A stretch of DNA of 64,000 nucleotides, taken from positions 15,281-79,280 of the forward strand of contig CBDDUX010000063.1 in NCBI GenBank assembly GCA_965234725.1, read 5' to 3'. Every line of letters starts with the position of its first letter. Position 1 is the stretch's first letter. The position numbers and the translations under genes were made by a program. The notes under the pieces were generated by a model. That model was not told where the DNA came from. It worked only from the letters and a program-made list of their open reading frames with translations, and did not search any database. Below, in pieces: positions 30,825 to 52,964 of the stretch. This stretch comes from Thermoplasmatota archaeon. Lineage in GTDB: Archaea; Thermoplasmatota; Penumbrarchaeia; Penumbrarchaeales; Penumbrarchaeaceae.

Positions 30825-30906
30825 TAAATTCTAACAACAAGTTCAAATCCGGCTCCACCCAGAATACTATCATTAAATGAGATGTAGTTACATCGATAGT
30901 ATAATA

Positions 30907-30922
30907 GGCGCCGGGAGCCGGA
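30907..30922 (-). repeat. Direct copy of tRNA-Ser 3' end (16 bp)
   Basis: GGCGCCGGGAGCCGGA identical to 31020-31035. Confidence 0.9.
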
Positions 30923-31018
30923 CATTCGTAAAAAAGTAAACCCAAGTGATTCTGATCACTTTTTTACTTGCCAGTGATTAATTATTGATTACACGGCTCC
31001 CTTTGATTAGAAAATAAA

Positions 31019-31103
31019 TGGCGCCGGGAGCCGGATTTGAACCGACAAGGGTTGCCCCAGCGGTTTTCGAGACCGCCGCCGTACCAGGTTGAGCCATCCC
31101 GGC
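31019..31103 (-). tRNA. tRNA-Ser(CGA), CCA encoded
   Basis: GCCGGGA/TCCCGGC acceptor stem, anticodon arm GCGGT-CTCGAAA-ACCGC, long variable arm, GGTTCAAATCC T arm; 85 nt. Confidence 0.96.
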
Positions 31104-31522
31104 GTTTAGATTTGCGAATGCACCAGAAACGGCTCAACCTGGTTGACCCGAAGGGTCATTATACCAGGTCGGAGTGTCGAAGGCACTCCCATCCGTGAAC
31201 GGAATTCCCGAAGGGAATTGGGTTCTGAGCTATCCCGGCGTTTAGATTTGCGAATGCACCAGAAACGGCTCAACCTGGTTGACCCGAAGGGTCATTATAC
31301 CAGGTCGGAGTGTCGAAGGCACTCCCATCCGTGAACGGAATTCCCGAAGGGAATTGGGTTCTGAGCTATCCCGGCGTTTAGAATTGCGAATGCACCAGAA
31401 ATAGCTCAACCTGGTTGACCCGTAGGGTCATTTTACCAGGTCGGAGTGTCGAAGACACTCCCATCCGTGAACGGAATTCCCGAAGGGAATTGGGTTCTGA
31501 GCCATCCCGGCGTTTAGAATTG
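31090..31522. repeat. Tandem array of 136-bp hairpin-rich units, each containing the tRNA-Ser 5' 14 nt
   Basis: Units start at 31090, 31226, 31362 plus a 25-bp partial at 31498; 1 difference between units 1 and 2, 6 between units 2 and 3. Confidence 0.97.
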
Positions 31523-31563
31523 AATGAAATTTGCTACGGCGGGTAAGGGGATGAAGTTAAAGG

Positions 31564-31580
31564 GTTTAAAAAGGGTTTTG
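31564..31580 (-). promoter_or_regulatory. Candidate TATA/BRE for the tRNA-Ser locus, upstream of the whole array
   Basis: Minus strand CAAAACCCTTTTTAAAC, about 55 nt upstream of the outermost tRNA 5' fragment; no TATA-like run seen inside the units. Confidence 0.45.
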
Positions 31581-31709
31581 GTCAGGTTCGGCCCTACCTC
31601 CATTAATATTCTGGACCTCCCGAGGATAAAACAATACTATGCTCAATATATTTCTGTCCTTAGTAAACAATATTAACATGGATCAAGTTCCCATCACTGG
31701 GTGTGAACA

Positions 31710-31922
31710 ATGAAAGGTGGATACGTCATCATGGGGATATTCCTCATGGCAACCTCATTTTAATTTCCACTTGGATATCTGATACTTGATCTACTATCAT
31801 TGGGTATTCTTACCGTATTGACACTAGGATTGGATTGGGTTTGCTGCTGTGGATTGAATTCACTTCTCTTCATTATCGGCATGGTTCTCTTTATCGTCGG
31901 TCTTGTAAAAGGTAAGGATTGA
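31710..31922 (+). pseudogene. Small membrane protein interrupted by an in-frame TAA
   Basis: ATG 31710, TAA at 31761-31763, hydrophobic frame continues to TGA 31920-31922. Confidence 0.55.
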
Positions 31923-31950
31923 GGATCAAAATACAGACGTTCTCTTCACT

Positions 31951-32286
31951 TTATGCATACATCATTTCATCGTCATGTTCATCCTTCATCAGGATCTCTT
32001 TCTTCTTCTTACGATCCCTATCCTTGGATTTGTGCTTTACAGCCTTCCTCTGGGTCTCGTCACGACCAAGGAACGTGAAATCGAACCTGTTCATCCTGAT
32101 GAACATCTTGTCAGGGAGCCTTTCTAACTTTATCCATCCCCTTGCCTCCATGCTTTTCAATGTCCTTGCCACATCCCTCGGAGACAAACCAGTCCTTTCG
32201 ATCACTTCTCTGTCATCGATAGGATATCTCTCAAGGATCACCCTCAGGATCTTTGCCTCTATGGACTTGGAATTCACCTGGACCAT
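31951..32286 (-). CDS. Small winged-helix DNA-binding protein
   Basis: GAGGGTGA RBS; EVIERTGLSPRDVARTLKSMEARGWI HTH; basic/acidic tail. Confidence 0.75.
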   Translation of the reverse strand: MVQVNSKSIEAKILRVILERYPIDDREVIERTGLSPRDVARTLKSMEARGWIKLERLPDKMFIRMNRFDFTFLGRDETQRKAVKHKSKDRDRKKKKEILMKDEHDDEMMYA

Positions 32287-32290
32287 ACTG

Positions 32291-33478
32291 TCACCCTCCC
32301 TCAATTGAGAAAGGACCTTTGATAACATCAAGGGGAGCATTGGTCTTGATAATGGTGGGTGAGAACCTGCTTCTTGACCATTTGTGTCCAAACCTCTCGA
32401 TGAATTTTGTTATGGTCTCTATTGATGGGGGAGAGGTCTTGTAATAGCTGGCAGTCTCGTTGATGTCGAAACCTCCAGGAGGAAGGGTCTCTTCGGTGAT
32501 AGCATACCTGAGAATCCTATCTATTGACCTCTTGCTTGCTATCCAATCACCCAGACGATCCTCAAGAACTGACCTGCATTCTTCACAGAATTCTATGTCT
32601 GCAAGGGAGCCGGTCCAGACAGGTCCCATCAATTCCCCTCCGATGATATTCCTGAGAAGCTCATGTGGACTTGCAATAACCTTCGGAGGACCTGGAGGAT
32701 CGTTAATGAGCCATCCTACCGAATCAAGGCTCAGATCAGCCTTTTTCGCACCTCTATCAACTCGAAGATATCCTCTTAAGAAATGATCTGATGAATAAAA
32801 CAGCAGAGGATGGATGGAGATCTCGAAGGATGCCGCCAAACGGGCAATATACCCGAGAAGGACCCGGCAGCCCATTTCCTGCATGAAATCGGTCCTTCCG
32901 ACTTCCACTCCATATCTTCTCCTGGCCACCCGAGACACAGATCCGGTCAGGGCGGCAGTATCAGTAGCAGTTACAGCAAGTATGCCACCCTTTCTAAGGG
33001 AAAGGAGTGAATTCTGCAAGAATGGGACCGGACTGCCATATGGGTCCACATCGATGTAATGGAATCTGCGAGTCCCGCAAAATCCATTCAGGTCTCCCCA
33101 ATGGAAAGCAACTCCCACACCGTTCTTTGTAGCTAGGTTCCTTGCACTTTCTATCGAATCACCTTTCAGATCCACTCCGGTTATTGAAAGGTCAAGATCT
33201 TTGACACCGAGCTCCATAGCGAACCTTACGGCCCTTATTCCAGAGCCAGTGAGGCCGTCCAGGATATCGATGATACCACTATCCCCGAATCTTCCGGTGT
33301 CAATGAGGGTCTGCATGACAACAACAGAGAGATCTCGGTTTTGGACCATTGCAGGATTGTAGAATACTGGCGCTTTCGAACCAGGACCTTTGCTTCCTCC
33401 TGTAGGTGGAGCAATCAGTTCCACCAAACCCTCTTTCCGAGAATCTGCAGTACCGTTCGATCCGGATACATCTGCCAT
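32291..33478 (-). CDS. trm1: tRNA (guanine-26-N2)-dimethyltransferase
   Basis: VFYNPAMVQNRD, GSGIRAVR, DVDPYGSP, TATD. Confidence 0.92.
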   Translation of the reverse strand: MADVSGSNGTADSRKEGLVELIAPPTGGSKGPGSKAPVFYNPAMVQNRDLSVVVMQTLIDTGRFGDSGIIDILDGLTGSGIRAVRFAMELGVKDLDLSITGVDLKGDSIESARNLATKNGVGVAFHWGDLNGFCGTRRFHYIDVDPYGSPVPFLQNSLLSLRKGGILAVTATDTAALTGSVSRVARRRYGVEVGRTDFMQEMGCRVLLGYIARLAASFEISIHPLLFYSSDHFLRGYLRVDRGAKKADLSLDSVGWLINDPPGPPKVIASPHELLRNIIGGELMGPVWTGSLADIEFCEECRSVLEDRLGDWIASKRSIDRILRYAITEETLPPGGFDINETASYYKTSPPSIETITKFIERFGHKWSRSRFSPTIIKTNAPLDVIKGPFSIEGG

Positions 33479-33566
33479 GTGGTGTTATCGAATGTATGGT
33501 TGATAACCTTTACATCGAAACATTGAATATGTATGATCAAATGGCATCTGTGCAGAAGGAATCCAC

Positions 33567-34379
33567 ATGAGCAATATGACATCGAATGGGTCTTCCGGGA
33601 CCGAAGAGGGACCAAAGGGAAAGATAGGCCACACAATAGCGGTAATGAGCGGAAAGGGAGGGGTGGGAAAATCCACCATCGCAACGAACTTGGCAGTCTC
33701 ATTATCAAGGAAGGGAAAGAAGATTGGAATAATCGATGCAGACCTGCATGGGCCGGATATTCCGAAAATGCTCGGACTTGAGGGAGCATTTCCAACAGCG
33801 GATGAAGATGGGAAGATGAATCCAATAATCGTAAACCCCACGCTTTCAGCGATATCTATGGGATTTCTTCTGGAATCGGATGACCAGCCGGTCATCTGGA
33901 GAGGACCTCTTAAGATGGGAGCAATAAAGCAGTTCATTAATGATGTGAACTGGGGCGACCTCGATTTCCTAATAATAGATCTACCTCCGGGGACAGGTGA
34001 TGAAGCGCTTTCCGTCGCTCAGTTGATCCCTGAGAACTCCAACGCGATCATCGTTACCACCCCCCAAGAAGTAGCACTCCTCGATTCAAGGAAAGCTATC
34101 AACTTCGCAAAGAAGCTGGATATGAAAGTATTGGGTGTGGTTGAGAATATGTCAGGAATGGTCTGTCCTCACTGCGGGGAAAGTATCGACCTCTTCGGAA
34201 GGGGTGGAGGAAAGAGAGCCGCGAAAGAACTGGATGTGCCATTTTTGGGTGATGTACCCATCATTCCATCCATGGTCGAGTCAGGAGATAGAGGGAAACC
34301 AGCTGTCTTGGACCAAGGTATTGCATCCACCTCATTGGAGAGGATCGCCGTAGCCGTCCTTGAGAACATAGAGAATTGA
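33567..34379 (+). CDS. Mrp/NBP35 Fe-S cluster carrier ATPase
   Basis: [29 protein letters not shown]. Confidence 0.94.
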
Positions 34380-34380
34380 T

Positions 34381-34692
34381 CTAAGCGTACTCTCTCCATG
34401 TGTTCTTACACTTGGTGCAACGATAAAACCTGGTGGTTGCCTCATCAGCTGACCTTGTCTGCCTTAGATGCCAGTAAGCCCCTATGTTACCACATTTGGG
34501 ACACATGACACTATCATCTATAGGCATGGTATCCAGGTCCTCGAATACGGGTACATCACTGAGATCCTCTTCAAGCTGGGTCCTTACCGGGACCTCAACC
34601 GAACCGTCTATTGGTTTATCGAACCCGCATCGAGGGCATAACAATCTCTCTCCTTCCGGTCTCAGAAGTGATTTGCAGCTTGGACAGAACAT
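34381..34692 (-). CDS. tfs: Transcription factor S (RNAP cleavage factor)
   Basis: MFCPSC...CPRC; CPKC...QTRSADEATTRFYRCTKC. Confidence 0.93.
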   Translation of the reverse strand: MFCPSCKSLLRPEGERLLCPRCGFDKPIDGSVEVPVRTQLEEDLSDVPVFEDLDTMPIDDSVMCPKCGNIGAYWHLRQTRSADEATTRFYRCTKCKNTWREYA

Positions 34693-34827
34693 GGGTGACA
34701 CTCCGATTGTATGCTTAAGTCCGATGGATGTTTTGGATAAATACTTTTTCCAACCAAGGAATACTGGTTCCAATACGATAAAATATCAGTATACTGATGA
34801 ATGTGACCACACAACGGGGATCGGATC

Positions 34828-35025
34828 ATGACAGATTCTAGCGGGTATGTTACCTGTCCAATTTGCGGGAAGGGAATGCTTCTTCCGGTCATGATTGGAG
34901 CGGGAGAGGACAGGGATGTCAAATACAGATGCACGGAACCATCCTGCGGGATAAGGTTCGATAGACACGGATATGAACGGTTCGACGAATCCGTCCAGGA
35001 ATGGAAAAGAGAGGAGGCGGGATAG
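34828..35025 (+). CDS. Small zinc-ribbon protein
   Basis: CPICG...CTEPSC; 65 aa; plausible RBS. Confidence 0.65.
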   Translation: MTDSSGYVTCPICGKGMLLPVMIGAGEDRDVKYRCTEPSCGIRFDRHGYERFDESVQEWKREEAG

Positions 35026-35026
35026 A

Positions 35027-35260
35027 CTGTTCTTCCAAGATCCAGTATTGGAAACCCATGTCCTATCGGATCAGAAACCGATCCTGAAGAGGACAGGGAT
35101 ACTCTGCTCCCACTGCCATAAGGAGATCAGAGGGAAACTCCACAATCTGGGGAACCGGTTCTATGACGATTACTGCTGGTCTCTGAGGTATATCCTCGAA
35201 GCACAGGAATCCGAGATGGAGAGATACCAGGAAATGCGGAAGAAGATGGACAAAGGATAG
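35027..35260 (+). CDS. Small putative zinc-binding protein (start uncertain: CTG 35027 or TTG 35048)
   Basis: CSHC...DDYC motif, coiled C-terminus; AGGAGG at 35012-35017. Confidence 0.5.
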   Translation: MFFQDPVLETHVLSDQKPILKRTGILCSHCHKEIRGKLHNLGNRFYDDYCWSLRYILEAQESEMERYQEMRKKMDKG

Positions 35261-35347
35261 AACTGACATGTTCCTCATGGCCAATTGTTTTATATCTCCC
35301 TTCCATTGTTTCAGAAATATGGTCGGGATCGAAGGTAAGGTGCTGAC

Positions 35348-35875
35348 ATGAAGGTTGTAATAGAGAATATGATCGCTTCATGTGCCGTGGAGGGTGACCT
35401 CAATATTGCCGAGGTTGGAGCGGATCTCCCGGGGGCCAGATATCAACCTGAGGTTTTCAGAGGGGTTACCGTCATAAGAGAGGATCCCGGATACAAATCC
35501 TTCATAATGGAAGATGGGACCATCAAGTTCCATGGACTGACATCGGAGGAGGGCTTGAACGATGCGCTCAAGGACCTCCTATCGGAACCTAGCTTGAAGG
35601 GAGTTCGGTTAAAAGACCCTTTAAGCATTCAGGAGATAATAGCATCAGTTGACCTAGGTGGACCAGTGGATGCTAAATTGATATACGAAGAGTTCAAGGA
35701 TGACGGTGTGATCTACGATCCGTCTGAACTCCCGGGATTCATCCTCAGTGTCGGGAATTCAGGGATCGAGGTACTCATTTTCCCGGAGGGGAAGATCATT
35801 ACAAGAGGGGCCAAGGACATTATGAACGCCGTATCCTCCCTCCAGATGGTACATGGAAGGATATCAGAGAGGTGA
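35348..35875 (+). CDS. Divergent TATA-binding-protein-fold protein
   Basis: Two TBP repeats: ENMIAS..YQPEVFRG..GTI and QEIIAS..YDPSELPG..LIFPEGKIITRGAK. Confidence 0.82.
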   Translation: MKVVIENMIASCAVEGDLNIAEVGADLPGARYQPEVFRGVTVIREDPGYKSFIMEDGTIKFHGLTSEEGLNDALKDLLSEPSLKGVRLKDPLSIQEIIASVDLGGPVDAKLIYEEFKDDGVIYDPSELPGFILSVGNSGIEVLIFPEGKIITRGAKDIMNAVSSLQMVHGRISER

Positions 35876-35882
35876 TCACCCC

Positions 35883-36740
35883 GTGATCAAGGGTCTTCCG
35901 GTGCTAGATGCCCATATCCACCTGGACCCAAAGGGAACTCCTGTTGAGGCTGTTACCAGGTTCAAAGAGGCAGGAGGATCACATCTTATTGTTGTTCATA
36001 AACCATACCATCACCTCAGTGAGACGACATCAGAAGAATATGAAAGGTCCTTCCAGACGACTATCGAGATGTGTGATCTTGCCAGGAGGAATGATGTCTT
36101 AGCCTGGTGTGTCGTCGGTCCATACCCCGGAAGTCTGCCCTATCTTGCAAAAAAAGTAGGTCTGGAGGAAGCGGAAAGTATCCAGATGACTGCCCTTGAA
36201 ACAGCCTTCGATCTTGTGGATGAAGGAACTGTGTTGGGGATCGGTGAAGTGGGAAGGGTACATTTCATGGTGGATGATGAGACTCAAAACGCTTGTGACA
36301 GGGTCCTTAAAAAGGCGATGAAAGGAGCATCTGTAAGGAGCTGCCCGGTGATCCTTCATACTGAATCACCCGGAGATAATCCGGACCTATACCGGCATAT
36401 TGCGGAACTTGCCGATCTTGCCGGTCTCCCTAGACACAGGGTCGTTAAACACTACTCCGGTTGGGAGGGAGCGGTACCTGAGATTGGGCTGGGCATATCG
36501 ATCTCGATGCAGGCCAGGAAGAAGAACATTGAGGTCGCATTGGAAAAGGGGCTTGACTTTCTCCTTGAGACCGATTATATAGATGAAAAGGAGAGACCGG
36601 ATGTTGTGATGCCACCCGATACCGTTCCGAAAAAGATATCCTGGGCTTACAGAAAAGGAATTATCGACCTAGAAATTCACCGAAGATTGATGGTGGACAT
36701 CCCCAGGGAAGTCCTTGGTATAGAAACAAAGGAGGATTGA
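35883..36740 (+). CDS. TatD-family metallohydrolase
   Basis: DAHIH, GIGEVGR, LHTE, VKHY, LETD; GAGGTGA RBS before GTG. Confidence 0.88.
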   Translation: MIKGLPVLDAHIHLDPKGTPVEAVTRFKEAGGSHLIVVHKPYHHLSETTSEEYERSFQTTIEMCDLARRNDVLAWCVVGPYPGSLPYLAKKVGLEEAESIQMTALETAFDLVDEGTVLGIGEVGRVHFMVDDETQNACDRVLKKAMKGASVRSCPVILHTESPGDNPDLYRHIAELADLAGLPRHRVVKHYSGWEGAVPEIGLGISISMQARKKNIEVALEKGLDFLLETDYIDEKERPDVVMPPDTVPKKISWAYRKGIIDLEIHRRLMVDIPREVLGIETKED

Positions 36741-36884
36741 GCGGTTCTCCCAAGCAGATATACTTTTCCTGAAAAGCCAATCAATTTTTGTCTGGCCATA
36801 AGCAAATAATAAATACCATTCGAACGTTTTGAATTTAGAGTCTTCATCTTGCAGGTGAAGTGATTAATAAACAGGGGGCCAGAC

Positions 36885-39800
36885 ATGGTAAACGAATCGT
36901 CTTCTCACAAATGGAGAACGAGTCTTTTCGGAAAAATGATGATCATAGGGGTATGTGGCATCCTAATGGGTGCAATACCCATGACAGCAGCCGTCAGAGA
37001 GGACCTGCAGCAGGTCTATGACCGGAAGATAACCACTTCCGGTGCATTAACGGGGTGGAACCTGACCAAGATAGGTGATATCAACGGAGATGGTTCAGTG
37101 GATTACGGAATGGGGTCTCCGGGTGAGAACAAGGCCTACGTATTCTTCGGTCCCCTTGCCAATAACTTCAATCCCGCATCCACAACCACCGGATGGGTGA
37201 TTTCAGGACCATCGAATTCCGATTTTGGATGGGATATCCAGGGTATTGGAAACTATGATGGAGATCAGTATGACGATCTCATTGTTGGTGCACCAGGTGT
37301 AGACAAGGCCTATATCTGGAAAGGCAGGTCAAGTGGAGTTTCGACATCATATACTTCCGCCAACCTTCAGATAAACGGGACGGACGGAGAGATGTTCGGC
37401 CATTCTGTTTGCGGGCTGAACTATGATGGAGATGAGGGGTGGTTCGCGGCTGTCGGTGCACCCATGAACATCCATTTCCTGGAGGATGTGGGAGACTATC
37501 AGTCCGGTGCCGTTTTCATGTTCAACCTTACGGCATTTTCAACATTCCCCTCCAAATATATGGAATCCTCCAATGCCAATTTCACTTACACAGGAGACGT
37601 TTACAGCGGGAGGTTCGGGCATATCGTCAGGAACGTTGGAGACCTCAACTATGATTCCATCGATGATCTTGGAATGGGTGATCCGTTCTATTCACCCTCC
37701 GGATATACTGACAAGGGAGCTTTCTACTTCCAATTCGGTAAGAATGTCCTTGCGGAACCTCCTCAGAAGTCCACATCAGATCTCGATGGGATAATATCTG
37801 GTAGAAATCAGTCCAAATTCGGTTGGTCCGCAAAGGGACTGGAGGATGTAGGTGGATCATTTGAGGACGATATCATGATTGGAGCTCCTTATGAGGGAGA
37901 AGGAAAAGCCTTTTTATTCTTCGGAGTGAACGGATCTTTCCCAAGTAAGGACCTTGCAGGAACGGATACACCGGATAATGAATTCAACGGGACCAATCCC
38001 GGAGATCTGTTCGGTTGGTCATTCGATAGGACCATGATCGCCGGGACCACTTTTGCTCTCTCGATATCAGCTCCAGGTTATGATAATGGGACGAAAGTGG
38101 ATGCAGGTGCGATTTACAGCTTCTGGTCCTGGTCAGGCCAGGAATCAGCTGATAATGCAAAGAGTGCATTCATCGGAGAAACTGCCGATGAAATGCTGGG
38201 ATATTCACTCTGCGAGGTGAACTACACTCTAAGCAATACAGGTCCCGTAAGGGTGATAGGGATACTGGCTTCCTCACCTTTCTACGGATCTACCAATGGG
38301 GGAAGGATCCAGATTTTTAAAAGGAACCAACTGCCCGAGCTCAGCCCTGTGAACATCAACTTTAAACATGGTAACCCATCAACGATATTCACGATCACTG
38401 TGGAATATTCCGACCCGGATAATGATGCTCCGGCCTATGTCAAGGTCGACTTCTTCTATGACCAATCCGGTGACAACCTCGCCAAGACGGTTACACTCAA
38501 CAGGGTTTTCTCGGACACAGATCCCTTTTCTGTTGGTGTTACCTATGAGTCAATGACAACACTTCCAAATTCCATAAGAAGGGATTCTCCGAATGCAAAC
38601 CTGTATCTCATAGGCTATACCCGGGCAGTCCGTGGCTCGATCTCAATGGTCTTCTCAGGAGTCATTGTGCCTGGTCCCGAGGTAGATGGGATCATCCCAT
38701 CAGCAGCTGACAACCTCAATGTCATTGGATGGGACACACTCCCCGAAGAGGATCTCATTGAAGGAAGCTTCAAGATATCCTGGGAATGGCCCGAGGACGA
38801 TGATGGAACTCTTTCTTCTGAATACAGTAGAAAGGTGAGCAAGCTGGAGATAAGGTATTTCCAGGGAAATGTGACAATGACCAATAGCAATTGGGATAAT
38901 GCGGTGAGTTACATTACATTCTCCAGTTCCACGGAGTTAAAGAACCCCTTTGCAAACCAGCAACTATTGATCGGAGCAGAGGATGAGACCATCAAACCGT
39001 TCCTCTACTACTCAGTGGCCATGAGGGCTTATGACGAGGAAGATAATGAAGGCAATGTATCCGCAACCCTCACCACTCAGGCATACTGGAGAAGACCAGA
39101 AATACCCGGACCTTGTGAGAGTGTGGATATATTCGATTACAAAGGTCCGGACAACATGGGTGATGATGGAGGCAAGCTTTTGGTCCAATTCACACCTCCG
39201 AACCTTGCGGTTCCCATGGATATCTCATATTATGAGGTGTTCGTTACCGAGGCAGAGGGATTCGATCTGGACAATCTTTCTGACTACAACAAGATCGATT
39301 GGGAACCGGACATGATAATTACCAAAGTAAATGAGGAGGCTTTCTACAACACGACATTTATCCTGGATTCCTATCATGGCGGGGACCTCCTTGACGGTGG
39401 TTATTATTATGTTGCCATCGTCCCTGTCAATTGGCTGGACCAGCATTCCAGGATCGTCACCTGGTCTGACCCGGAGATAGAGGTCAAGATCATCAACGAC
39501 AACCTTTCAGCTATAGCAAGGATCAAGGGCGTTTCGGGAACATCCATCAACGGGGAGGCAAAGATCAGGGTTACATGGACCCCAACAACCGATACCAAGT
39601 TCACAAGATATGAGATCTATGGCCAATCCTTCTCCTATACCAATATCGATGATGCGGTTAAACTTGCAACGATCACAGAAAGGGGCCTTACGGAGTTCAT
39701 CGTAGGGGATATATCAGGAACTCCAATTTCCCAGGCACATCTCTATTTCTTCACGGTACTTGTTATGGACCACAACGACCATATTGATACGGCCATAGAT

Positions 39801-41591: not shown

Positions 41592-41608
41592 AAACTATCT
41601 AAATTGCT

Positions 41609-41640
41609 GCGGGGAGTTACCCCTCCCCGCCATTTTTCTC
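41609..41640 (+). terminator. Hairpin terminator
   Basis: GCGGGGAG/CTCCCCGC stem followed by CATTTTTCTC, 18 nt after the stop. Confidence 0.65.
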
Positions 41641-41688
41641 TTAACTTATCTATATTAGAAGGCAATCCTAGAGCGAGGAATGTCCTAA

Positions 41689-42792: not shown

Positions 42793-42859
42793 AATTGAAC
42801 CTTTCAACCATAAAGATTATCATATCTTCTTCAGTAGTTCCATTGAAGGAAGGGGACAC

Positions 42860-43810: not shown

Positions 43811-43900
43811 TATCGATAAAGAGCCCACATAACTGTACTTGCACCAATAACAATTAAAAAGGGAAAGGACCCTGATTGATAATAGCGGGGGTAATTCCTA

Positions 43901-46900
43901 TTGAGAGGAATAGTTGTAATGGTCCTTGTGTTCTTACTCTCATTTCCAATCAATATTGTATCCGGAGAAGATGAAGGCCGGGAGAGGGTCATTCAAGAAT
44001 TTTCAGAAAGTCCTCCGATAGGATCCTTTCCGCCAACCACTATTGACGGTGATGATCAACTTGCCACCTTCATAAGCAATAATAATTTCACAGGGAATGG
44101 GACGGAGGAGGACCCTTTCATTATTGGTGATCGAACCTTTGATGTCACTAATTCCAGCTTTGGCCTTTACATCTCAAACATTACTACCTTCTGTTTTAGA
44201 ATTATTGATTGTTCATTTGAAAATAATGATCCAAACAATCTATCGATTTTACCAACAGGACTGATAATCAAAAAATGCAAGAACATCAATATCAACAATT
44301 GTTCTTTCAGGGGAAATGAGAATGGGTTATTAGAAGACATGAACTCAAATATAAAGATAATAAACTCCACATTCGAAGATCTATCTGGACATGGTATCTT
44401 GGGTTTTTCTGGAACCAAAGGTATTGATTTCGATGGTTGTTCATTTACCAACTGCCTAAATGGGATCAATATGACCGTATCCAAGTTCAATATCAGAAAC
44501 TCCACTTTTAGGAATAACAGGGAATACGGAATATTTTCCAGATCGATCCTTAGAGATTCAACGGTATTTGATTCTATTTTCCTGGAAAATGAAATTGGGA
44601 TCGAGATCATTGATCATACATACTTTGAAGCAAAATGCAGAATTAGTAACAATTTATTCGCCTTTAATAACGGATACGGAATTTATTCCATAGAAGATTC
44701 AAGGATTTTCAATAACACGTTCATCGAAAACAATAACCAGTCCGGACAGCTAATGAATGGATCTTCACAAGCATTGGGATTCTATGATTCCCCTTATTGG
44801 GAATTCAAAGGAAGAGGCAACTTCTGGTCCGATCATAACCTAACCGATTCGAATTACGATGGTGAAACGGATAATCGCTACCGTCTTGATGATATCTATT
44901 CAACGAGTTACGATGAACATCCTCTCTCATATGTCCCTCAAATAGGTATCCCGGATTTCAGGATATTTACTGGTAACTCTGAGGTAGAGATCGAGATAAT
45001 AAATTGGACTGAATTCAATTTCTTTGATCATATAGGATTCAGAATTTACAGGTCAGAGGACCTCATCAACTGGACACATGTAACTGACCTCCCCCTCCCC
45101 ATTACAGAATACACGGACAAGACCGTTTGGAACGATCACACCTACTATTACAAAGTGACATGCCTCGGGAAGCTTCAAGGTTACGACTGGGTCGGGGAGG
45201 GGTTCAGAGGTCCTATCCTGAACGAGACGCCGAATGGGAAAGCATCCGAGATCACATTCCTTTTCCCGGTCCATGGGATGGTATACGGTGTGGAAGATAT
45301 TCTGGTCACATGGACGGTCGTGGATGACCAGGACCGCCTTGAAAGCGTAGAGATCAGTGTCAATGGATTAGATTGGCAGCCCTATTACAATAATTCTTTT
45401 CTTATGAAAGGCCTTACGAACGGGACCTATTCTTTTGGAATAAAGGCCCGGGATGAAGCAGGCAATACCGCAGAGAAATTCATTTCTTTCACCATTGATA
45501 TGGATGATCCCATAGTGGAGATCCTCAATCCGCTTCCCGGGTCCTACATCACCGAGACACCCTTCAAGATCGAATGGAGGATCTTTGACCCCACTACAGA
45601 GATCATGGGGATGAGCCTTATCGTTGACGGATCAAGCGTATCCGTTGATCTCGGAGATGAAAGCCTGACATTGGACTTGAAAGACGGCAGCCATAGAATA
45701 AATCTTGAAGCATGGGATATTAACTTAAGGAGAAGTGGGGCATATTCGAATTTCATCGTTGATACCGTTCCACCGATGATCAATATCATCTCCCCGAAAT
45801 GGAATGAAGTTGCAGGACCAGGATCCCTTGATCTGGAATACGAGGTATCTGATATTACATCAGGTGTGGATTATGTGCTTTACAGGATCGATAATGGGAA
45901 CTGGCACCAGGCAAAGAGCGAGACCGAGATCGATACTTCCAAATTGAACCATGGAGAGCACAAACTGGAGCTCCTTGCGGAGGATATTGCAGGGAACATC
46001 GGATATGACCACATCAGATTCATGATCGACAGGAGATCGCCTTCAATCACAATATACCATCCAGTTAATGGTTCCAGGATTAACAGATTGATAGATATCA
46101 GAATGGATTGGGAAGCCGAAGATAAGGAGAGTGGATTGGACCTTTTAAGGATCGATTTCGATAATACCAGCAACCACATGATCATCGAGGACCCCGAAAT
46201 AGGTCATTGCTTCCTCTATTTCTCCGAAGCAGGCCCTCATACTATCAAGGTGACCCTCTTTGACCTTGCAGGTAACAGTGATACCGAGTTGATCGATATC
46301 TTCATCGATATTACAGCACCATTCATCAGAAGTGTCAATCCCCATGGAAATGATGTTCCCACATCATCATACTTCACCATCCTGTTCAGTGAATTGATGG
46401 ATGAGACCAGGACTGTAATCTCGATCTCCGGTGTCAACAGCCATGGTTACTTCACAGGACCTATGTACAATTTGTTTCCAGATGGTGACCTTGAAACGGA
46501 CACAAGATACACTCTGCTTGTCAGGGGATACGACCTTGCAGGGAATGAATTGACCCTGCAGGAGGTCTCCTTCACCACATGGAAAAAAGGTACTGTTCAC
46601 GGAACTGTCAGAGAAAAGGATGGTGATCCGATACCCCATGTTTTTGTGAATGTGACCGGGGAGGAGCTGGAGATGGAAACCGATCTTGGGGGTAATTTCC
46701 AATTCGATCTGGTTCCAGGATCATATGAGATCAGGTTCTTCCTGACGGATTACAAGTCATACAAGATAGAAGTGAACGTTGAACCAGATGGGGATACTAT
46801 CATGGGGGATATCCTGCTGGAAAGGATAGGTTCATCAGATGAAAATACGAAAGGATCGGATGGTAGATGGATAGTCCTGTTCCTCCTTCTGGTGATCGGA

Positions 46901-47071
46901 GGTCTTCTGTCAACTGGCACTTTCTTGTTCTTCTACATCAACAAGGGAAAGGATGAATCAGTTGAATTGGAGAGCAAAGAAGATGATTACCTCGTTCAAA
47001 GAGGAGATGATCCGGATGAATACATCAAGCACGAGGGTAATATCGAAGAGGCTAAAAGGGACCTATGGTGA
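43901..47071 (+). CDS. Surface protein: right-handed beta-helix (NosD-like), FN3, Ig-like repeats, carboxypeptidase-regulatory-like domain, TM
   Basis: NNxF repeats, GNFWSD, DxAGN and IDxxxP Ig repeats, C-terminal TM. Confidence 0.82.
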   Translation: MRGIVVMVLVFLLSFPINIVSGEDEGRERVIQEFSESPPIGSFPPTTIDGDDQLATFISNNNFTGNGTEEDPFIIGDRTFDVTNSSFGLYISNITTFCFRIIDCSFENNDPNNLSILPTGLIIKKCKNININNCSFRGNENGLLEDMNSNIKIINSTFEDLSGHGILGFSGTKGIDFDGCSFTNCLNGINMTVSKFNIRNSTFRNNREYGIFSRSILRDSTVFDSIFLENEIGIEIIDHTYFEAKCRISNNLFAFNNGYGIYSIEDSRIFNNTFIENNNQSGQLMNGSSQALGFYDSPYWEFKGRGNFWSDHNLTDSNYDGETDNRYRLDDIYSTSYDEHPLSYVPQIGIPDFRIFTGNSEVEIEIINWTEFNFFDHIGFRIYRSEDLINWTHVTDLPLPITEYTDKTVWNDHTYYYKVTCLGKLQGYDWVGEGFRGPILNETPNGKASEITFLFPVHGMVYGVEDILVTWTVVDDQDRLESVEISVNGLDWQPYYNNSFLMKGLTNGTYSFGIKARDEAGNTAEKFISFTIDMDDPIVEILNPLPGSYITETPFKIEWRIFDPTTEIMGMSLIVDGSSVSVDLGDESLTLDLKDGSHRINLEAWDINLRRSGAYSNFIVDTVPPMINIISPKWNEVAGPGSLDLEYEVSDITSGVDYVLYRIDNGNWHQAKSETEIDTSKLNHGEHKLELLAEDIAGNIGYDHIRFMIDRRSPSITIYHPVNGSRINRLIDIRMDWEAEDKESGLDLLRIDFDNTSNHMIIEDPEIGHCFLYFSEAGPHTIKVTLFDLAGNSDTELIDIFIDITAPFIRSVNPHGNDVPTSSYFTILFSELMDETRTVISISGVNSHGYFTGPMYNLFPDGDLETDTRYTLLVRGYDLAGNELTLQEVSFTTWKKGTVHGTVREKDGDPIPHVFVNVTGEELEMETDLGGNFQFDLVPGSYEIRFFLTDYKSYKIEVNVEPDGDTIMGDILLERIGSSDENTKGSDGRWIVLFLLLVIGGLLSTGTFLFFYINKGKDESVELESKEDDYLVQRGDDPDEYIKHEGNIEEAKRDLW

Positions 47072-47073
47072 GA

Positions 47074-47748
47074 TCACTCGTATTCCACATACATATCAGT
47101 AATGAGGACCGTATTGACGGGCCTGTCATTTGAATCTGTCTGGGTCTCAGCGATCCTGTCTACTACATCCATTCCACTTACAACCATTCCGAATACGGTA
47201 TGTTCACCATCGAGATGGTGTGGTTCATTCTGACCCTCACCCTGGACAATGAAGAACTGGGACCCTGACATCCTGGTCTCTCCACCTCTCTTTGCCATGG
47301 AAATCGCTCCCCTGACATGGGTCAGACCGTTATCGGTCTCAGGTTCAATGGTGTAACCTGGTCCGCCTGTTCCATCACCGTTTGGGTCACCGCCCTGTAA
47401 CATGAAATCCGGGATGACCCTGTGGAATGTGAGTCCATCATAGAAACCCTGCTTACAGAGTTTCTCCATATTGGCACATGTGATTGGGGCCTTGTCCTCG
47501 TTCAGCGCTATTTTGATGGTACCATATCCGCTGACCTTGATATAGAGGAAGGGATCACCCTGGTCTACGATCTGTTCATCCAGGAACCTTCCGTTATCAT
47601 CCGGGAGGTCCTCTGTAGTGAAGATGAAGAAATTGGCGAATACAAGACCCAATACAAGGATCAGTATCGCTCCTCCAAGGATCATCAGTGGTATCAGATC
47701 GTTGCCACCTTGTCGGTCCTTCAAGATCATTCTCTTCATTATAATCAC
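47074..47748 (-). CDS. Membrane-anchored cyclophilin-type PPIase
   Basis: [37 protein letters not shown]-terminal TM. Confidence 0.92.
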
Positions 47749-48650
47749 CTCACGATAGAGTTCATTATCACCTTGAATACCAAGGTTCTTCCAGAGACCT
47801 CGCGGTTGAAATCAATTGTTATGATCCCTCCCACGTTTGTGACGATCCCTGTTGGTGGTTCCTGTCCCTGATTGGCCTCAGTAGCCTTCTTGGCCCATAC
47901 CGGGTCAAGGAACATGATATCCGGGAATAATACCGGTTGGGTAGTATCTATCCCATTGATATCGTGTGAAAGTGTTATCACATTCCTGGAACTGGATATA
48001 TCAGAAACGGTCACATTCCAGTTGAACTTCCCATAGACACCCTCATAAGCAGGCTGGTTAAGGATAGTAACGGTATCAGGGTCCTGCTCGATTATCTTGA
48101 CTTCCCAGTCCCAGAAGGGATGCATGAAGGATTCCTGAGAAGCAGGATCGATATTTGGGAAGCGAACCTTGAATTCATCTGCAGGGATATCCTCTCTTAA
48201 GGGAATAGAGGTCTTTGAAGATATGTTGATTTTGAGCTCAGGAAGAACATCACCGTATCCTTCTTTGGGTGGAACTGTTATGTATTTGATGGATCCCACT
48301 GTCATCCCGAGGACACCTTCATCAAATCCCTTGATCATCTGGCCGGAACCGATCGTGAATGTGAGATCATCATATGTGTCCCTGACCGTGAAAGCAGAAG
48401 CCTTGGGAATGGACTCGTTACGGGCATCTTCTGGTATTGTTGTATCGAACAATGCCCCTAACTCTCCCCCGGAACCTAGGAAACGACCGGTATAATCAAC
48501 GGATACCTCATCGCCTTCCTTGGCCAAAAGTATCTCATCTTCCTTCTTGTCGTTTGATTCGCGCTCATCCCACCAGGTAAGGAAGGCAAGCCCACCAACC
48601 ATGAATAGAGCAACGACAACGGCCCCGATGCAGAGAGTTTCATCTTTCAT
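47745..48650 (-). CDS. Membrane-anchored FKBP-type (SlyD-like) PPIase with long insert
   Basis: [42 protein letters not shown]. Confidence 0.88.
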
Positions 48651-48677
48651 TTTCAAACACCTTGAATTGAGCGAGGT

Positions 48678-49133
48678 TCAGGGATATAACCATACCTCGT
48701 CTATCTTCTCCATGTCCATTATCTCATCTTCATTGAAGAATATCGAGATCTCACGGTCAGCGCTATCTTTGGAATCAGAGCCGTGAACGACATTCCTTGA
48801 AAGATCTATTGCAAGATCTCCCCTGATCGTTCCGGGAGGACTTTCCCTGGGATCGGTCTTTCCCATCATCTTTCTCATTCCTTCGATGACATTGTCCCCT
48901 TCGATCACCATGGCGACCACAGGTCCCGAAGTGATGAATGAAACTAGGTCATTGAAAAAGGGTTTGCCTACATGCTCTTCGTAATGCTTTGAGGCGGTCC
49001 CCTCATCCACCCTCAACATTTTGAGGGCGGAGACCTTGTATCCTTTGTCCTCGATCCTATCTATGATATTACCCACAAGCGATCTCTGGACGCCGTCGGG
49101 TTTGATCATGAAATAGGTCCTCTCCCGTGCCAA
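48678..49133 (-). CDS. ndk: Nucleoside diphosphate kinase
   Basis: ERTYFMIKPDG, PGTIRGD, NVVHGSD; TTG start with AGGAGTGA RBS. Confidence 0.96.
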   Translation of the reverse strand: MARERTYFMIKPDGVQRSLVGNIIDRIEDKGYKVSALKMLRVDEGTASKHYEEHVGKPFFNDLVSFITSGPVVAMVIEGDNVIEGMRKMMGKTDPRESPPGTIRGDLAIDLSRNVVHGSDSKDSADREISIFFNEDEIMDMEKIDEVWLYP

Positions 49134-49137
49134 ATAA

Positions 49138-49320
49138 TCACTCCTTGACATGGTATTTGGACCATCTGGTCCTTCTGGGTACCCTTTTGAGCTGGATCTG
49201 GTTCTTGTAGCATTTGGTCGAGCAGAAGAAGAATACCTTTGCATCCTTCTTCACATACATCCTTCCCGTACCGGGTTCTATCTTTGCTCCACAAAAGGAG
49301 CAGGTTCTTGCCTCTACCAT
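49138..49320 (-). CDS. rpl24e: 50S ribosomal protein L24e
   Basis: CSFCG..IEPGTG.MYV...FCSTKC. Confidence 0.96.
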
Positions 49321-49324
49321 TTGC

Positions 49325-49534
49325 TCACCTCACGCTGAGCTTCCTAGCTTCCCTTGCGGATTCCCTGAGCAGGAGTATATCTCCGATCCTGATAGGGCCC
49401 ATGGCATTCCTGGCGATTATCCTTCCCTTGTCCTTGCCGTCGAGTATCCTGACCTTGACCTGTGTGGCCTCTCCGGCCATCCCGGTCTTTCCGATCAATT
49501 CAACGACCTCGGCGGGAATTCCATCAACTGGCAA
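49325..49534 (-). CDS. rps28e: 30S ribosomal protein S28e
   Basis: [34 protein letters not shown]. Confidence 0.96.
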
Positions 49535-49546
49535 TTGGGTCCCTCC

Positions 49547-49921
49547 TCACTCCTTCTTGTTCAATTCTTGAAGCCTTTTGGAGATGGTCTCCACAAGGAC
49601 CTTTCCCTTTCCGGGTTGAATGATCGCCACTGCCGTTGTGGGGACCTTCAACGAGGCTGTGTTGCCGAGCTCCTGCCTGCTTGGCACATAAGCAAAGGGA
49701 ATATTCTTCTCGTTACACAGGTACGGGACATGCATGAGGATCTCTGGAGGGGTCGTGTCCTCGGCCAGGATCACCAGCCGGGCCTTGCCCCTTTCCACAA
49801 CTTTGGTCACCTCATTGGCACCTTTCCTGATCTTACCTGTGTCCCTGGCAAGCTCAACGGCCTCGTATACAGATTCGACAAGGTCCTTGGGCATCTCGAA
49901 CTTCACGAAACTTGCTGGCAT
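49547..49921 (-). CDS. rpl7ae: 50S ribosomal protein L7Ae
   Basis: [37 protein letters not shown]. Confidence 0.96.
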
Positions 49922-50122
49922 GTGATTACCTCCTTCGGGCCTATGGAATATTTCTCCATGGCCTTCATCATTCATTGGCTCTCGGTCAGAGCAATCTCAG
50001 TATAAAAGCCTCCTATAAATACGTTTCCGGTTCTGGACAAGGAGTCCTTCTAGTATGGTCAGAGTATCAATGGAGAGGAAAAACGACTATATTTTTATTA
50101 CCTTGTAAAGGAAATCCCATCC

Positions 50123-50734
50123 ATGGCCGGTGAAGGTTTGAATGAGGATGAGAAGCTTCTCAAGGAAAGAGAGCTGACCCTTCGCAATGATAAAAGACGG
50201 CAGGCCGAGTGGTATGAATCACTCAACCTCTATGCCGAGGCAATGAAGGTCTTTGAATCGATCCAGGACCAGGAAAATATTGTTCGGCTAAGGGAAAAGA
50301 TGAGGAAGGATTATGGAAAGAATGCCAGATCTCTTGAGGACAAGGGAAGGTTCCAGGATGCGGCAAATCTATACTACCTCATCGGGGACAATTCAGGTGT
50401 CAGAAGGATGAAGGAATTGAAGCCGGACCTCGTAATACTCTATGATTCCGAAAACGGAGGGCTGGCAAAGCTCGCAAGCACTCTGGATGAGATTGGACCG
50501 GATGATGATGGTGAAGATCTCTTCTCCAAACCCAATGTCGAGGAAGATGGAGATGAGGTGGAAGAAAAACCGAAGAAAAGGGATATTCCCATCAAGAAAC
50601 CCGCCAAGAAGAAGGAGATCCTGGTACCAACCCCCAGTGAAAAAAGGATCAGATTCTGCCCATACTGCGGTGAAGAACTGACAACCAAGAAAGAACCAAG
50701 GTTCTGCCCCTTCTGTGGCGAGGACATATCTTGA
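50123..50734 (+). CDS. Hypothetical protein with helical repeats and C-terminal zinc ribbon
   Basis: FCPYCG...FCPFCG. Confidence 0.75.
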   Translation: MAGEGLNEDEKLLKERELTLRNDKRRQAEWYESLNLYAEAMKVFESIQDQENIVRLREKMRKDYGKNARSLEDKGRFQDAANLYYLIGDNSGVRRMKELKPDLVILYDSENGGLAKLASTLDEIGPDDDGEDLFSKPNVEEDGDEVEEKPKKRDIPIKKPAKKKEILVPTPSEKRIRFCPYCGEELTTKKEPRFCPFCGEDIS

Positions 50735-51769
50735 TCAATCCCGCTTCCTTAGAGATGGGAGACCAGGAAGCTTCCTCTCTCCCGGTCTTAGCATCTCTGG
50801 CAGATTCTCCCGGCGCATCCTATCGATCATTTCCAGCAGAGTGTGTGTGTGTGAGAATCCATCATATGAGAATATCATCAGGATCACCGCTATGAAAGCG
50901 ATTATTGAACCTACCAGGAACCCAAATGAGAATACAGATAGGAAAGCGGATAGAAGTGCAAGTGAGAAGAATTCCTTCCTGTAAACAAAGAAGGCTGAAA
51001 TCAGGGCCATGATCGAGGCAAGGAACATCAGTGAAGCTGCGACATTGGTAATGAACCCGGAATATGTCTTGGTCTTGAATTGATGAACGAGAATGGGAAG
51101 TTCATCATCTTCAGATCCCTTTTCCATGGGAACATCGATCACATTGGGAGATCCTTTCCTGATTGTAATTCCGCTCTTTACGGTCTTATATCCATCCTTG
51201 TATATGGTCAGGTCCATTTCTCCGGCAACAATATTCTCTATCACAACAAGGCCCTGATCATTGGACATGCCTGAGAAATTCCCTGAACCACTGGACAGTG
51301 AGACATTCACATTATCCAATGCTCTTCCAGAATCAGCATCTATGACCCAGACCGATAGCGTTACCAGACTGGTGGGGCTCTTCTCCTCCAGATCATAGAT
51401 TGAGAAGGTGCCAATGATGGTCGAGAATGAGGAGACCATCCCCAGGATACCGACCATTAAAAGAAGAACGAATATCAATCTCATTCTCCTTTTATGAGGC
51501 AGGTCTAGGACAGTTGACACTTCGGAAGCAATAACAACCTTCTTTTCCGGTTCGATCATAAATGAGGTCGCTTTTTTCGGATGGAAATGTCTGCCATTTA
51601 TCTTGATCGACTCGGACCCACTGTTCCTTTTCTTGATCTCTATATCGAGCTCTTTCTGACATGCGGGGCAGTCAAGTGAGAATGTCCCCTCATCAACGTT
51701 TGGGGGGAGCCTCATCAAGATCTCCTCACCGCATTCGAAACATTCAGCCTCAAGGGTCCTACGGGGCAG
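50735..51769 (-). CDS. Membrane protein: N-terminal Zn ribbon, carboxypeptidase-regulatory-like domain, several TMs; probable CTG start
   Basis: In-frame extension adds CFEC pairing with CPAC; AGGAGG 7 nt upstream of CTG 51769. Confidence 0.72.
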   Translation of the reverse strand: MPRRTLEAECFECGEEILMRLPPNVDEGTFSLDCPACQKELDIEIKKRNSGSESIKINGRHFHPKKATSFMIEPEKKVVIASEVSTVLDLPHKRRMRLIFVLLLMVGILGMVSSFSTIIGTFSIYDLEEKSPTSLVTLSVWVIDADSGRALDNVNVSLSSGSGNFSGMSNDQGLVVIENIVAGEMDLTIYKDGYKTVKSGITIRKGSPNVIDVPMEKGSEDDELPILVHQFKTKTYSGFITNVAASLMFLASIMALISAFFVYRKEFFSLALLSAFLSVFSFGFLVGSIIAFIAVILMIFSYDGFSHTHTLLEMIDRMRRENLPEMLRPGERKLPGLPSLRKRD

Positions 51770-51892
51770 CTACTTTCCTCCTGTTATCTAAAAATGTGGG
51801 CTTGGTTAATTAAACCATGTGGTGTTTTCACCTATTTATTAGGACCTGTCCATTGGAAATGTTGAAATCCATTGATATAGTTGTTGAAATAG

Positions 51893-52597
51893 ATGAGAGA
51901 GGTGGAAAACGGTAACATTGAGGGGTTACAAACACCCCGGCTGTCCAGAGGTCAGCATCTCTTCAGGAGGATGATCCACCTGATCTCTGGATCAGTGGTT
52001 GTCTATTACCTGTTTCCGGACAGCGTCCTCTTTCTACCAAAGGAGATCGTACTGATCCTTGTCATCGGTCTGCTACCTCTTATCATAGAATATATCAGAT
52101 TGTCCAGAGGTGCTATCATTTTCGGTCAGAGGCCACATGAATATGAAGCTGTCGGGTCATATGCATGGTCCCTCTGGGCATCCCTATTCATAATCCTGAT
52201 ATTCCCTCAATCAATAGCGGTTCCTGTCATCTTGATATATTCCTTTGCTGACCCCGTCATGTCCGAACTCAGGGTATGGAAAAAATGGTCGGCTTTCAGC
52301 TTCGGTTTCCTGTTCATATGGATCATGTTCATGGTTTTCGGATTCAATATTGTCCTTGCTGCCTATGGGGCCCTCTTCATGATCATAGGAGAATCCACAG
52401 AACTGAAGGGTATATTGAGGGTCCGGCCTGAGCTGGCCAAATTGTATGAGGTCGAAAATGATATCAAGAAATGGATATTCAAGTTCAAGACGGATGATGA
52501 TGGAACGACCCAGGTTATCCCGGCCCTCTTTCTGGGACTTGCCTATCTATTCTCTCCCTCTTCATTTCCAGGACCGTGGTTGTTCCCACTTTTCTAG
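51893..52597 (+). CDS. Dolichol/phytol kinase-like membrane protein
   Basis: RRMIHL, RPHE...GSY, ADPxxSELR and DDD motifs, multiple TMs. Confidence 0.65.
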   Translation: MREVENGNIEGLQTPRLSRGQHLFRRMIHLISGSVVVYYLFPDSVLFLPKEIVLILVIGLLPLIIEYIRLSRGAIIFGQRPHEYEAVGSYAWSLWASLFIILIFPQSIAVPVILIYSFADPVMSELRVWKKWSAFSFGFLFIWIMFMVFGFNIVLAAYGALFMIIGESTELKGILRVRPELAKLYEVENDIKKWIFKFKTDDDGTTQVIPALFLGLAYLFSPSSFPGPWLFPLF

Positions 52598-52632
52598 TAT
52601 TAACATCAGGATATGGGGATCCCAACACAAAA

Positions 52633-52905
52633 CACCATTTCATGAAATGAGTTGAAATTTTTAAAAATGGTGCAGGCGCCGGGACATGTGAATAATCTAA
52701 GATTATTCACGTGTGTGGAAAATGTTCCATTTTCCAAACATTTGATTCCGCAAAATCAAAGATTTTGCTCAGGTTGAGCATTATCTATCGGCGCTTTAGT
52801 AAAACCAATGCTCAACCACCCAAGGGTTCAAATCCCTCACGTCGATTCCAGAGCACCATTTCATGAAATGAGTTGAAATTTTTAAAAATGGTGCAGGCGC
52901 CGGGA
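52633..52905. repeat. 52-bp perfect direct repeat (tRNA-Gly 3' 17 nt plus 35 nt trailer) enclosing a hairpin-rich insert
   Basis: 52633-52684 identical to 52854-52905; period 221 bp. Confidence 0.95.
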
Positions 52906-52964
52906 TTTGAACCCGGGTTAAAGGCTTGGAAGGCCCTTGTCATAGCCAACTAGACTACGCCTGC
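52889..52964 (-). tRNA. tRNA-Gly(TCC), CCA encoded
   Basis: GCAGGCG/CGCCTGC acceptor stem, loop CTTCCAA, GGGTTCAAATCCC T arm; 76 nt. Confidence 0.96.

Follow-up and report, generated by a model that had tools for sequence, protein, structure and literature searches.

Hairpin units beside archaeal tRNA genes resemble E. coli tRNA-linked repeats and may carry a guide to their insertion site

The closest described relatives of the elements reported here are the tRNA-linked repeats (TLRs, also called RtT) of Escherichia coli, which have been on record since 1978 (PMC8144298). Stenum et al. (2021, PMC8144298) count 22 of them at ten loci, report that they are transcribed and processed, call their function not known, and name as their hallmark a 3' terminus that repeats exactly the last 18-19 bp of the preceding tRNA. 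A 2024 preprint describes raised mobilome coverage at tyrT-rttR with a mode of action that it calls unknown (10.1101/2024.07.17.603846). Similar hairpin units adjoin tRNA-Ser(CGA) and tRNA-Gly(TCC) in a stretch of 64,000 nucleotides (the window) of contig CBDDUX010000063.1, which belongs to a Penumbrarchaeaceae genome of the archaeal phylum Thermoplasmatota (G000; 3.5 Mb in 114 contigs, 97.65% complete). Judged from their layout, these archaeal units are a variant of the known TLR/RtT kind. They add to it mirror units that lie upstream of tRNA genes on the antisense strand, a guide held in a fixed register, and folding that is biased to one strand.

The repeats at the Ser and Gly loci (Table 1) are real and far above chance. 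Behind tRNA-Ser, 22-nt direct repeats are spaced 113 bp and accompanied by an inverted 16-mer, while tRNA-Gly is followed by 57-nt direct repeats spaced 221 bp and an inverted 13-mer. For G000 tRNAs, inverted matches of at least 12 nt within 400 nt are found in 8 of 35 flanks on the 3' side and 4 of 44 on the 5' side, compared with about 0.1% and 0% of random windows, which bears out the expectation of an earlier note on this DNA that such matches exceed control frequency. All 10 folds give z-scores between -3.05 and -8.1, and an Rfam scan of the window returns tRNAs only. An independently assembled contig from sequencing run X1, possibly the window's own sample, is identical over positions 30300-31105, and run X2, which comes from another study, contains at 31232-31396 a related unit with 10 differences; together they exclude an artefact at the Ser locus. 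None of the listed contigs spans the whole Ser 5' array. A composite unit related to the window's Gly unit stands behind tRNA-Gly(TCC) in genome G004.

We sort the units into classes A, B, C and S, labels coined in this analysis. A class A unit starts with the tRNA end from the junction outward, followed by an AT-rich hairpin and an inverted copy of the first bases of that tRNA end. Next come about three bases that complement the target immediately to the left of the junction, then a short motif (TTGG, GTAG or GAAG) and two hairpins, the last of which closes at the junction. Class A junctions fall at T-loop positions 53-56. Classes B and C join at 59/60 (the slash marks the junction) and have no long junction-spanning inverted copy. 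Class S units and those of a sister class occupy the upstream side of tRNAs in antisense orientation, with junctions at 14/15 or about 23, and their last hairpin is closed by GAAC with GTTC in six units, CAAC with GTTG in two and CAAC with GCTG in one. The duplicated tRNA ends measure 14 nt in classes B, C and S and 18-24 nt in class A, and distal units often end after the guide. One class A right end occurs both on the 3' side in sense and on the 5' side in antisense, and the class A design serves sense-wise behind T-loops and antisense-wise upstream of D-loops. On the 5' side of tRNA-Thr(GGT) in G004 (L050), hairpin modules near the anticodon arm interrupt an antisense copy that covers most of the gene.

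The earlier note placed three junctions of the window under one rule, in which each element is accompanied by an inverted copy of its own intact target junction. The sequences that it quoted all lie where it placed them, and the rule holds at the Ser 5' array, where the inverted copy spans the junction with 6 + 7 nt. The Ser 3' insert is instead a class C unit without a junction-spanning copy, its duplicated end being only partly inverted (30994-31001). The 16-mer that had been taken as its partner is the left end of a class A unit that is older and truncated; complete units of this form in another genus (L303, L296) have the same guide context and join at GGTT/CAAATCC. Likewise, the Gly inverted copy was matched to a break before TCCC but serves a junction 5 nt further upstream, GGGT/TC, where the same guide type joins at tRNA-Gly(CCC) in G000 and at tRNA-Glu in G003. 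The break at 59/60 that the two 3' events were said to share is real, and both continue with CAT on the + strand (30923 and 52685), but this break is not set by those two inverted copies. Distances of 70 and 72 nt between inverted copy and tRNA-end copy are not reproduced; measured arm to arm, the two distances are 57 and 65 nt.

Where an inverted copy is present, sequence comparison supports the view that it tracks its own tRNA and behaves like a guide, as the earlier note had proposed in describing a non-autonomous, guide-carrying family targeted to tRNAs. In 40 of 41 rows (38 of the 41 being tRNA-proximal), the copy forms a Watson-Crick match to base 57 in the T-loop of the closest tRNA-end sequence upstream; the remaining row is G.T, and A.C does not occur. 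In a scan of 48 units, one of them bacterial, the inverted copy complements at least three target bases left of the junction in 44 (exactly three in 26), and longer runs come mostly from eroded copies. These three extension bases vary with the target (ACC with GGT, ATC with GAT, AAC with GTT, CCC with GGG, AAA with TTT), and the register is held even though the junction slides over positions 53-56 of the tRNA and can also lie on the antisense 5' side. The equivalent of the internal target-left copy of the Ser array tracks the cognate tRNA in other class S units as well. Because T-loops are conserved, some 3' guides fit other tRNAs equally well (0 to 7 of 34).

The class A structure is supported by covariation in 24 of 26 selected units, among which 14 of 24 named pairs change on both sides. 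In the proposed register 94% of cells pair, compared with 26-48% when the structure is slid. The pair that closes the last stem at the junction is T-A in 19 of the 24 units and C-G in the other 5. In 30 of 32 units, folding as DNA favours the strand that points away from the tRNA. The mismatches in stems are G.G (17), G.A (11), G.T (7) and T.C (3), with no C.C or A.C. Triloops in 5'-side units are GNA in eight cases and TNC in none; GNA triloops are stable in DNA.

The same layout recurs in E. coli, and the earlier note's description of a new system is not supported. In the tyrT repeat, the tRNA-end copy is 19 nt long and is followed by an inverted T-arm copy (20 nt, 3 mismatches), hairpins and then the junction. 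Cognate inverted junction copies occur at tyrT, tyrV, proK and lysQ with 3-5 mismatches in 18, and 0-4 of 500 shuffles are as good. These are the four of nine tested loci with the full layout. The full guide is absent from the other five: four short Lys units retain only its duplicated-side half, and rrfB has no cognate match. Of 5426 E. coli genomes, 4741 contain RtT, each at between 1 and 14 places. The Rfam RtT model RF00391 matches its E. coli control but nothing in 37 genomes of the archaeal class or in the window; because it misses the archaeal units, homology between the two groups rests on layout rather than on sequence. Archaeal 3' units carry the TLR hallmark, in that they end in tRNA-end copies of 14-24 nt, and like TLRs they are gene-less hairpin units with one to several copies per locus. 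TLRs lie downstream in tRNA or rRNA operons, one to five at each locus, a placement that the archaeal 3' units share but the 5' mirror array, upstream and on the other strand, does not. They differ in their junctions (53-56 and 60, compared with 58-59 in E. coli), in the 5' mirror units on the other strand, and in the presence of several scaffold classes that form mosaics at up to two thirds of tRNA loci. A full-text search of the literature, with most subscription journals (the 1978 and 1999 papers among them) outside its reach, found no paper on a junction-spanning guide in TLRs, on 5' mirror units or on archaeal TLRs. A module string directly behind the 16S rRNA gene at G000:C103:10420-10700 recalls the E. 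coli TLRs behind rRNA genes.

Units of this kind are widespread in the family. Direct tRNA-end copies of at least 12 nt flank 17 of 44 tRNA loci in G000, where 9 loci have a 3' flank shorter than 200 nt; the figures for G004 and G003 are 21 of 31 and 26 of 39. A T-loop followed 40-70 nt on by an inverted T-loop is present in 23 of 23 other family genomes and 2 of 2 genomes of a sister family, so that the pattern does extend to other tRNAs and relatives, as the earlier note required. In a sample of the phylum it occurs in 52 of 401 genomes, where some of the outer hits are convergent tRNA pairs; two candidates, L283 and L284, were rejected as units on this ground. In 185,579 species genomes a class-specific 20-mer is found at 49 loci, and 46 of these loci lie in entries titled as Thermoplasmatota-type archaea. 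Of 36 such archaeal loci inspected, 34 follow a tRNA and 2 follow a tRNA-end copy. The same tRNA carries different units in related genomes, and some tRNA-end arrays hold cargo genes. Four bacterial prophage-border loci (L326, L342, L345, L346) share the layout. Viral contigs yielded no autonomous element, and many of their pattern matches are chance matches in tRNA clusters; searches of plasmids and phages with bacterial units return mostly chromosome-like fragments or weak matches.

The observed anatomy, covariation, register, strand bias and turnover between genomes suggest that these tRNA-linked repeats act as non-autonomous mobile units that are inserted as folded single-stranded DNA by guide pairing, a reading to which we assign a probability of about 0.5. 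The strand pointing away from the tRNA would leave as a folded single-stranded DNA circle, and its guide would bind to an intact tRNA gene by pairing, on the same strand, across the junction. Strands could then be swapped there by a nick-and-join enzyme that is provided in trans and has HUH-like chemistry of the IS200/IS605 or REP type. Insertion would restore the tRNA and push older units outward, where they decay. Classes B and C, which have no long guide, may use a shorter one or another enzyme. In the literature, cleavage sites of IS200/IS605 and REP elements are picked by pairing of the DNA with a DNA guide that lies 5' of a hairpin (PMC8266576, PMC6006769), and REP families without a dedicated transposase are described (PMC3733652). 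More tentatively, archaeal and bacterial tRNA-linked repeats, E. coli RtT among them, could make up a single, ancient class of minimal mobile DNA. In these elements a DNA guide spanning the junction would set the insertion site, on either strand of the tRNA gene, and the nick-and-join enzyme would come from outside the Y1, Y2, IS110, IntI and Cas1 families covered here; we regard this wider proposal as possible but rather doubtful.

Several results weigh against insertion as folded single-stranded DNA. No Y1 transposase is found in 24 family genomes, and a Y1 profile built from class members matches no open reading frame of G000, an absence limited by the tendency of assemblies to drop multi-copy elements. 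Genome G004, which is 83% complete and has fresh arrays, showed neither Y1 nor Y2, and the Y2 (IS91) elements of the family are self-contained and target T-tracts. Judged by eye, no open reading frame for a recombinase or transposase lies between the tRNA-end copies of 117 tRNA loci, and contigs, to which this check was confined, show neither circle junctions nor pairs of empty and filled sites within a population. RNA folding also favours the outward strand, in 24 of 32 units, and 3'-side triloops have no GNA excess (7 GNA, 8 TNC). The guide scan left out beforehand an uncounted number of units with no 12-nt direct copy within 260 nt or no exact 6-nt inverted seed, and comparison of the guide with the unit's own tail is partly circular. 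The class A structure was derived from the same, related sequences on which it was tested, and related genomes are not independent samples.

No candidate enzyme, neither those that are present (Y2/IS91, IntI-like, Cas1, IS110 and group II intron reverse transcriptase) nor Y1, could be tied to the units. None is visible in the window either, as the earlier note had said, and among the Y1-HUH, IS110, reverse transcriptase and integrase genes for which it suggested looking, none co-occurs consistently with the units. Flanks of Y1 genes in other families contain no units. A Y2/IS91 gene in G001 beside module-like hairpins was set aside when a close copy in G015 proved to end at the same T-tract with different downstream DNA, and the best 20 of 62 metagenome Y2/IS91 loci are ordinary self-contained elements. 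By eye, the units show no IS91 ori-like motif, and they have no linked Y2. Two IS91-type elements have collapsed out of the G000 assembly, one with its ends at 15 (ori-type) and 13 (ter-type) contig ends, and multi-copy enzymes can therefore be invisible in this genome. The element with these contig ends, a multi-copy member of the IS91 family, is whole at L177:1205-2594 (1389 bp, with a 413-aa Y2 transposase in G007), has an ori-like end upstream of the gene and inserts at T-tracts.

An integron-integrase-like (IntI-like) gene stands beside an attC-like site in 8 of 23 other family genomes and was not found in G000 or the 15 others. This mobile gene (about 270 aa) is preceded by its attC-like site at L249:900-2010, L245, L247 and L253, and the pair is possibly an archaeal integron. 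An AT-rich, bacterial-looking integron integrase region at the end of G004:C9 (L244) may be a contamination or misjoin. IS110 genes occur in 5 of 5 genomes of the genus and 10 of 24 of the family. IS110-type ends border related hairpin strings, one of them inside a tRNA-linked unit, while IS110 flanks bear no resemblance by eye to tRNA-linked scaffolds. Cas1 of any kind is present in 5 of 24 family genomes, G000 included (4 of the 23 others). A casposase-like Cas1 of 407 aa at G000:C59:27-2456 (L117) follows tRNA-Leu(CAG) at a distance of about 1.5 kb and may share a terminal repeat with C55. Group II intron reverse transcriptase is also present, and an intron-like element at G000:C42 (L001; also L363) apparently sits inside the start of an IS110 transposase gene.

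Among other explanations, a tyrosine recombinase could act on a folded single-stranded site, as at integron attC or phage CTX. The left hairpin would rebuild a double-stranded arm, one strand would be exchanged, the three matching bases would let the incoming target strand pair, and replication would resolve the product. Short homology beside a crossover and extrahelical stem bases, features known from such systems, would suit the observed stems, as would the IntI-like genes and the cargo genes of some arrays. Those integrases were not found in most of the family, G000 included, however, and their own site is unlike the modules. The T-loop and antisense D-loop junctions have no common arm sequence, and the three-base match would need a folded inward strand whereas the outward one is favoured; we consider this route unlikely. 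Still less likely is a route in which a transcript of the unit would serve as guide or template for insertion by an IS110-type recombinase or a reverse transcriptase acting in trans. The transcription and processing of E. coli TLRs (PMC8144298), the frequency of IS110 and its ends at hairpin strings, and the presence of the intron reverse transcriptase all suit an RNA intermediate. Yet the folding strand of upstream units is antisense to the tRNA transcript, IS110 flanks do not look by eye like the scaffolds, and the guide is one contiguous reverse complement, unlike the split left and right geometry of bridge RNA. At tRNA-Gln(CTG) the inverted copy takes in genomic flank beyond the tRNA, and it is therefore not a copy of the mature tRNA.

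The units could also have arisen with no dedicated enzyme, by fold-back template switching; recombination between tRNA-end copies would then have spread them, and functions at the RNA level, termination or processing for example, would have preserved them. That no enzyme co-occurs consistently agrees with this, identical tandem units fit unequal crossing-over, and the number of RtT places per E. coli genome is variable. Fold-back synthesis at each site, raised by the earlier note as an option, does not explain scaffolds common to different tRNAs and genera, nor do class-specific junctions, the fixed guide register and a stem that closes exactly at the junction follow from it; antisense mirror units, moreover, would not fold in this way in pre-tRNA. 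We judge an origin without a dedicated enzyme improbable. An assembly artefact or chance inverted matching has practically no weight. The arrays do break many contigs, no listed contig crosses the Ser 5' array, and conserved T-loops give some guides several equal matches, but this explanation is already refuted by the agreement of separate assemblies and studies, the low rate in random windows and the recurrence of the pattern throughout the family.

Table 1. Positions of the tRNA genes and repeat units in the window, with related arrays elsewhere in G000
Feature	Position	Strand
tRNA-Ser(CGA), target on both sides	31019..31103	-
5' mirror array of 3.2 class S units of 136 bp, read antisense to tRNA-Ser	31090..31522	+
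Class S unit starts (tRNA positions 14 to 1 copied together with about 10 nt of upstream DNA)	31090, 31226, 31362, 31498	+
Inverted copy of intact D-loop junction (6 nt duplicated side, 7 nt target-left)	31131..31143; again 31267-31279 and, as a 12-nt copy, from 31404	+
Internal direct copy of 7 target-left bases; can pair with guide extension	31163..31169	+
Class S terminal hairpin, closed by GAAC with GTTC at junction (sister class CAAC with GTTG)	31197..31225	+
Decayed distal 5' unit (11-nt inverted match to tRNA at 31532-31542)	31523..31545	+
113-bp class C unit behind tRNA-Ser, joined at T-loop position 59/60	30923..31035	-
Right-end hairpin of Ser class C unit	30923-30972	-
Older truncated class A unit, scaffold and right end lost	30831..30922	-
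Truncated class A unit: tRNA-end copy	30901-30922	-
Truncated class A unit: AT-rich hairpin	30861-30902	-
Truncated class A unit: inverted T-arm copy	30841-30856	-
tRNA-Gly(TCC)	52889..52964	-
Class A unit behind tRNA-Gly	52741..52905	-
Gly class A unit: tRNA end and left hairpin	52849-52905	-
Gly class A unit: guide	52824-52836	-
Gly class A unit: hairpin 1	52772-52817	-
Gly class A unit: hairpin 2	52748-52771	-
Gly class A unit: TCAAA remnant of tRNA copy, after the tail	52741-52745	-
Second two-hairpin module (56 nt) between TCAAA and TCCC of tRNA copy	52685..52740	-
Distal tRNA-Gly end copy and left hairpin of decayed unit	52628..52684	-
Cargo-bordering tRNA-end arrays	G000:C38:73486-77663, C28, C12, C85, C75	

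Parts of these loci recur elsewhere. The scaffold of the Gly class A unit is also found at tRNA-Glu and tRNA-Gly(CCC), its second two-hairpin module also lies behind Gly tRNAs of G004, and a remnant resembling the decayed distal 5' unit of the Ser locus is present in G003 (L106). The 56-nt split of the Gly tRNA copy may be an insertion or a deletion within a second unit. Cargo genes at a distance from the tRNA are bordered by copies of tRNA-Ala and tRNA-Met ends that carry class B or A modules, in the manner of stacked cassettes. The window also has a 318-bp unit with two copies inside a coding region (22032-22653). At 11860-12046 it holds an intergenic string of long-loop hairpins (loop motif ATTGACG) that is related to the tRNA-linked modules and has no tRNA. 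The end of this string matches the left end of relatives' IS110-family elements at 36 of 38 nt, and it may be a miniature IS110/IS1111 derivative; similar strings occur at about ten further places in G000.

This lineage offers dozens of diverged, recently active units in which guide register, strand and last-stem closure can be read, and the old TLR puzzle becomes testable by setting the three guide bases against junction position. Up to two thirds of tRNA loci have flanks remodelled by the units, which also occur at island borders. An enzyme that reads such guides, if there is one, would constitute a compact, programmable insertion system, and the wider proposal, if true, would imply natural insertion programmed by base pairing across archaea and bacteria.

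Among other known systems, IS200/IS605 ends and the REP/BIME arrays served by TnpA-REP, a Y1 HUH enzyme, are similar in their strand-biased hairpins, insertion beside a guide-complementary site, and mosaic arrays, and their short guide 5' of a hairpin has an analogue in class A. The archaeal guide differs in being linear, junction-spanning and 9-20 nt long rather than of the tetranucleotide form, and the archaeal unit holds a copy of the target end, has no constant GTAG tag and occurs in a family without Y1. Tyrosine-integrase elements at tRNA genes also restore the tRNA end on insertion and accrete displaced copies outward; the archaeal units, in contrast, are 110-220 bp long, have no integrase, carry a covarying inverted copy, join at sliding junctions and also use the 5' end. 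Casposons have terminal inverted repeats inside a fixed 14-15-bp duplication. The 14-nt duplicated tRNA ends of classes B, C and S and the casposase-like gene near a G000 tRNA-Leu are reminiscent of them, whereas the units have no terminal inverted repeats and their duplication length depends on class (18-24 nt in class A). Bridge RNA of IS110 elements has a split target-binding loop with a direct left guide and an inverted right guide and comes with a linked DEDD recombinase, while the archaeal guide is contiguous and inverted, and the flanks of the IS110 genes present are unlike the units. Elements of the IS91 family have an oriIS sequence at one end and a linked Y2 transposase. Integron attC sites have a fixed G/TT crossover, whereas the archaeal junction varies and G000 yielded no IntI-like gene.

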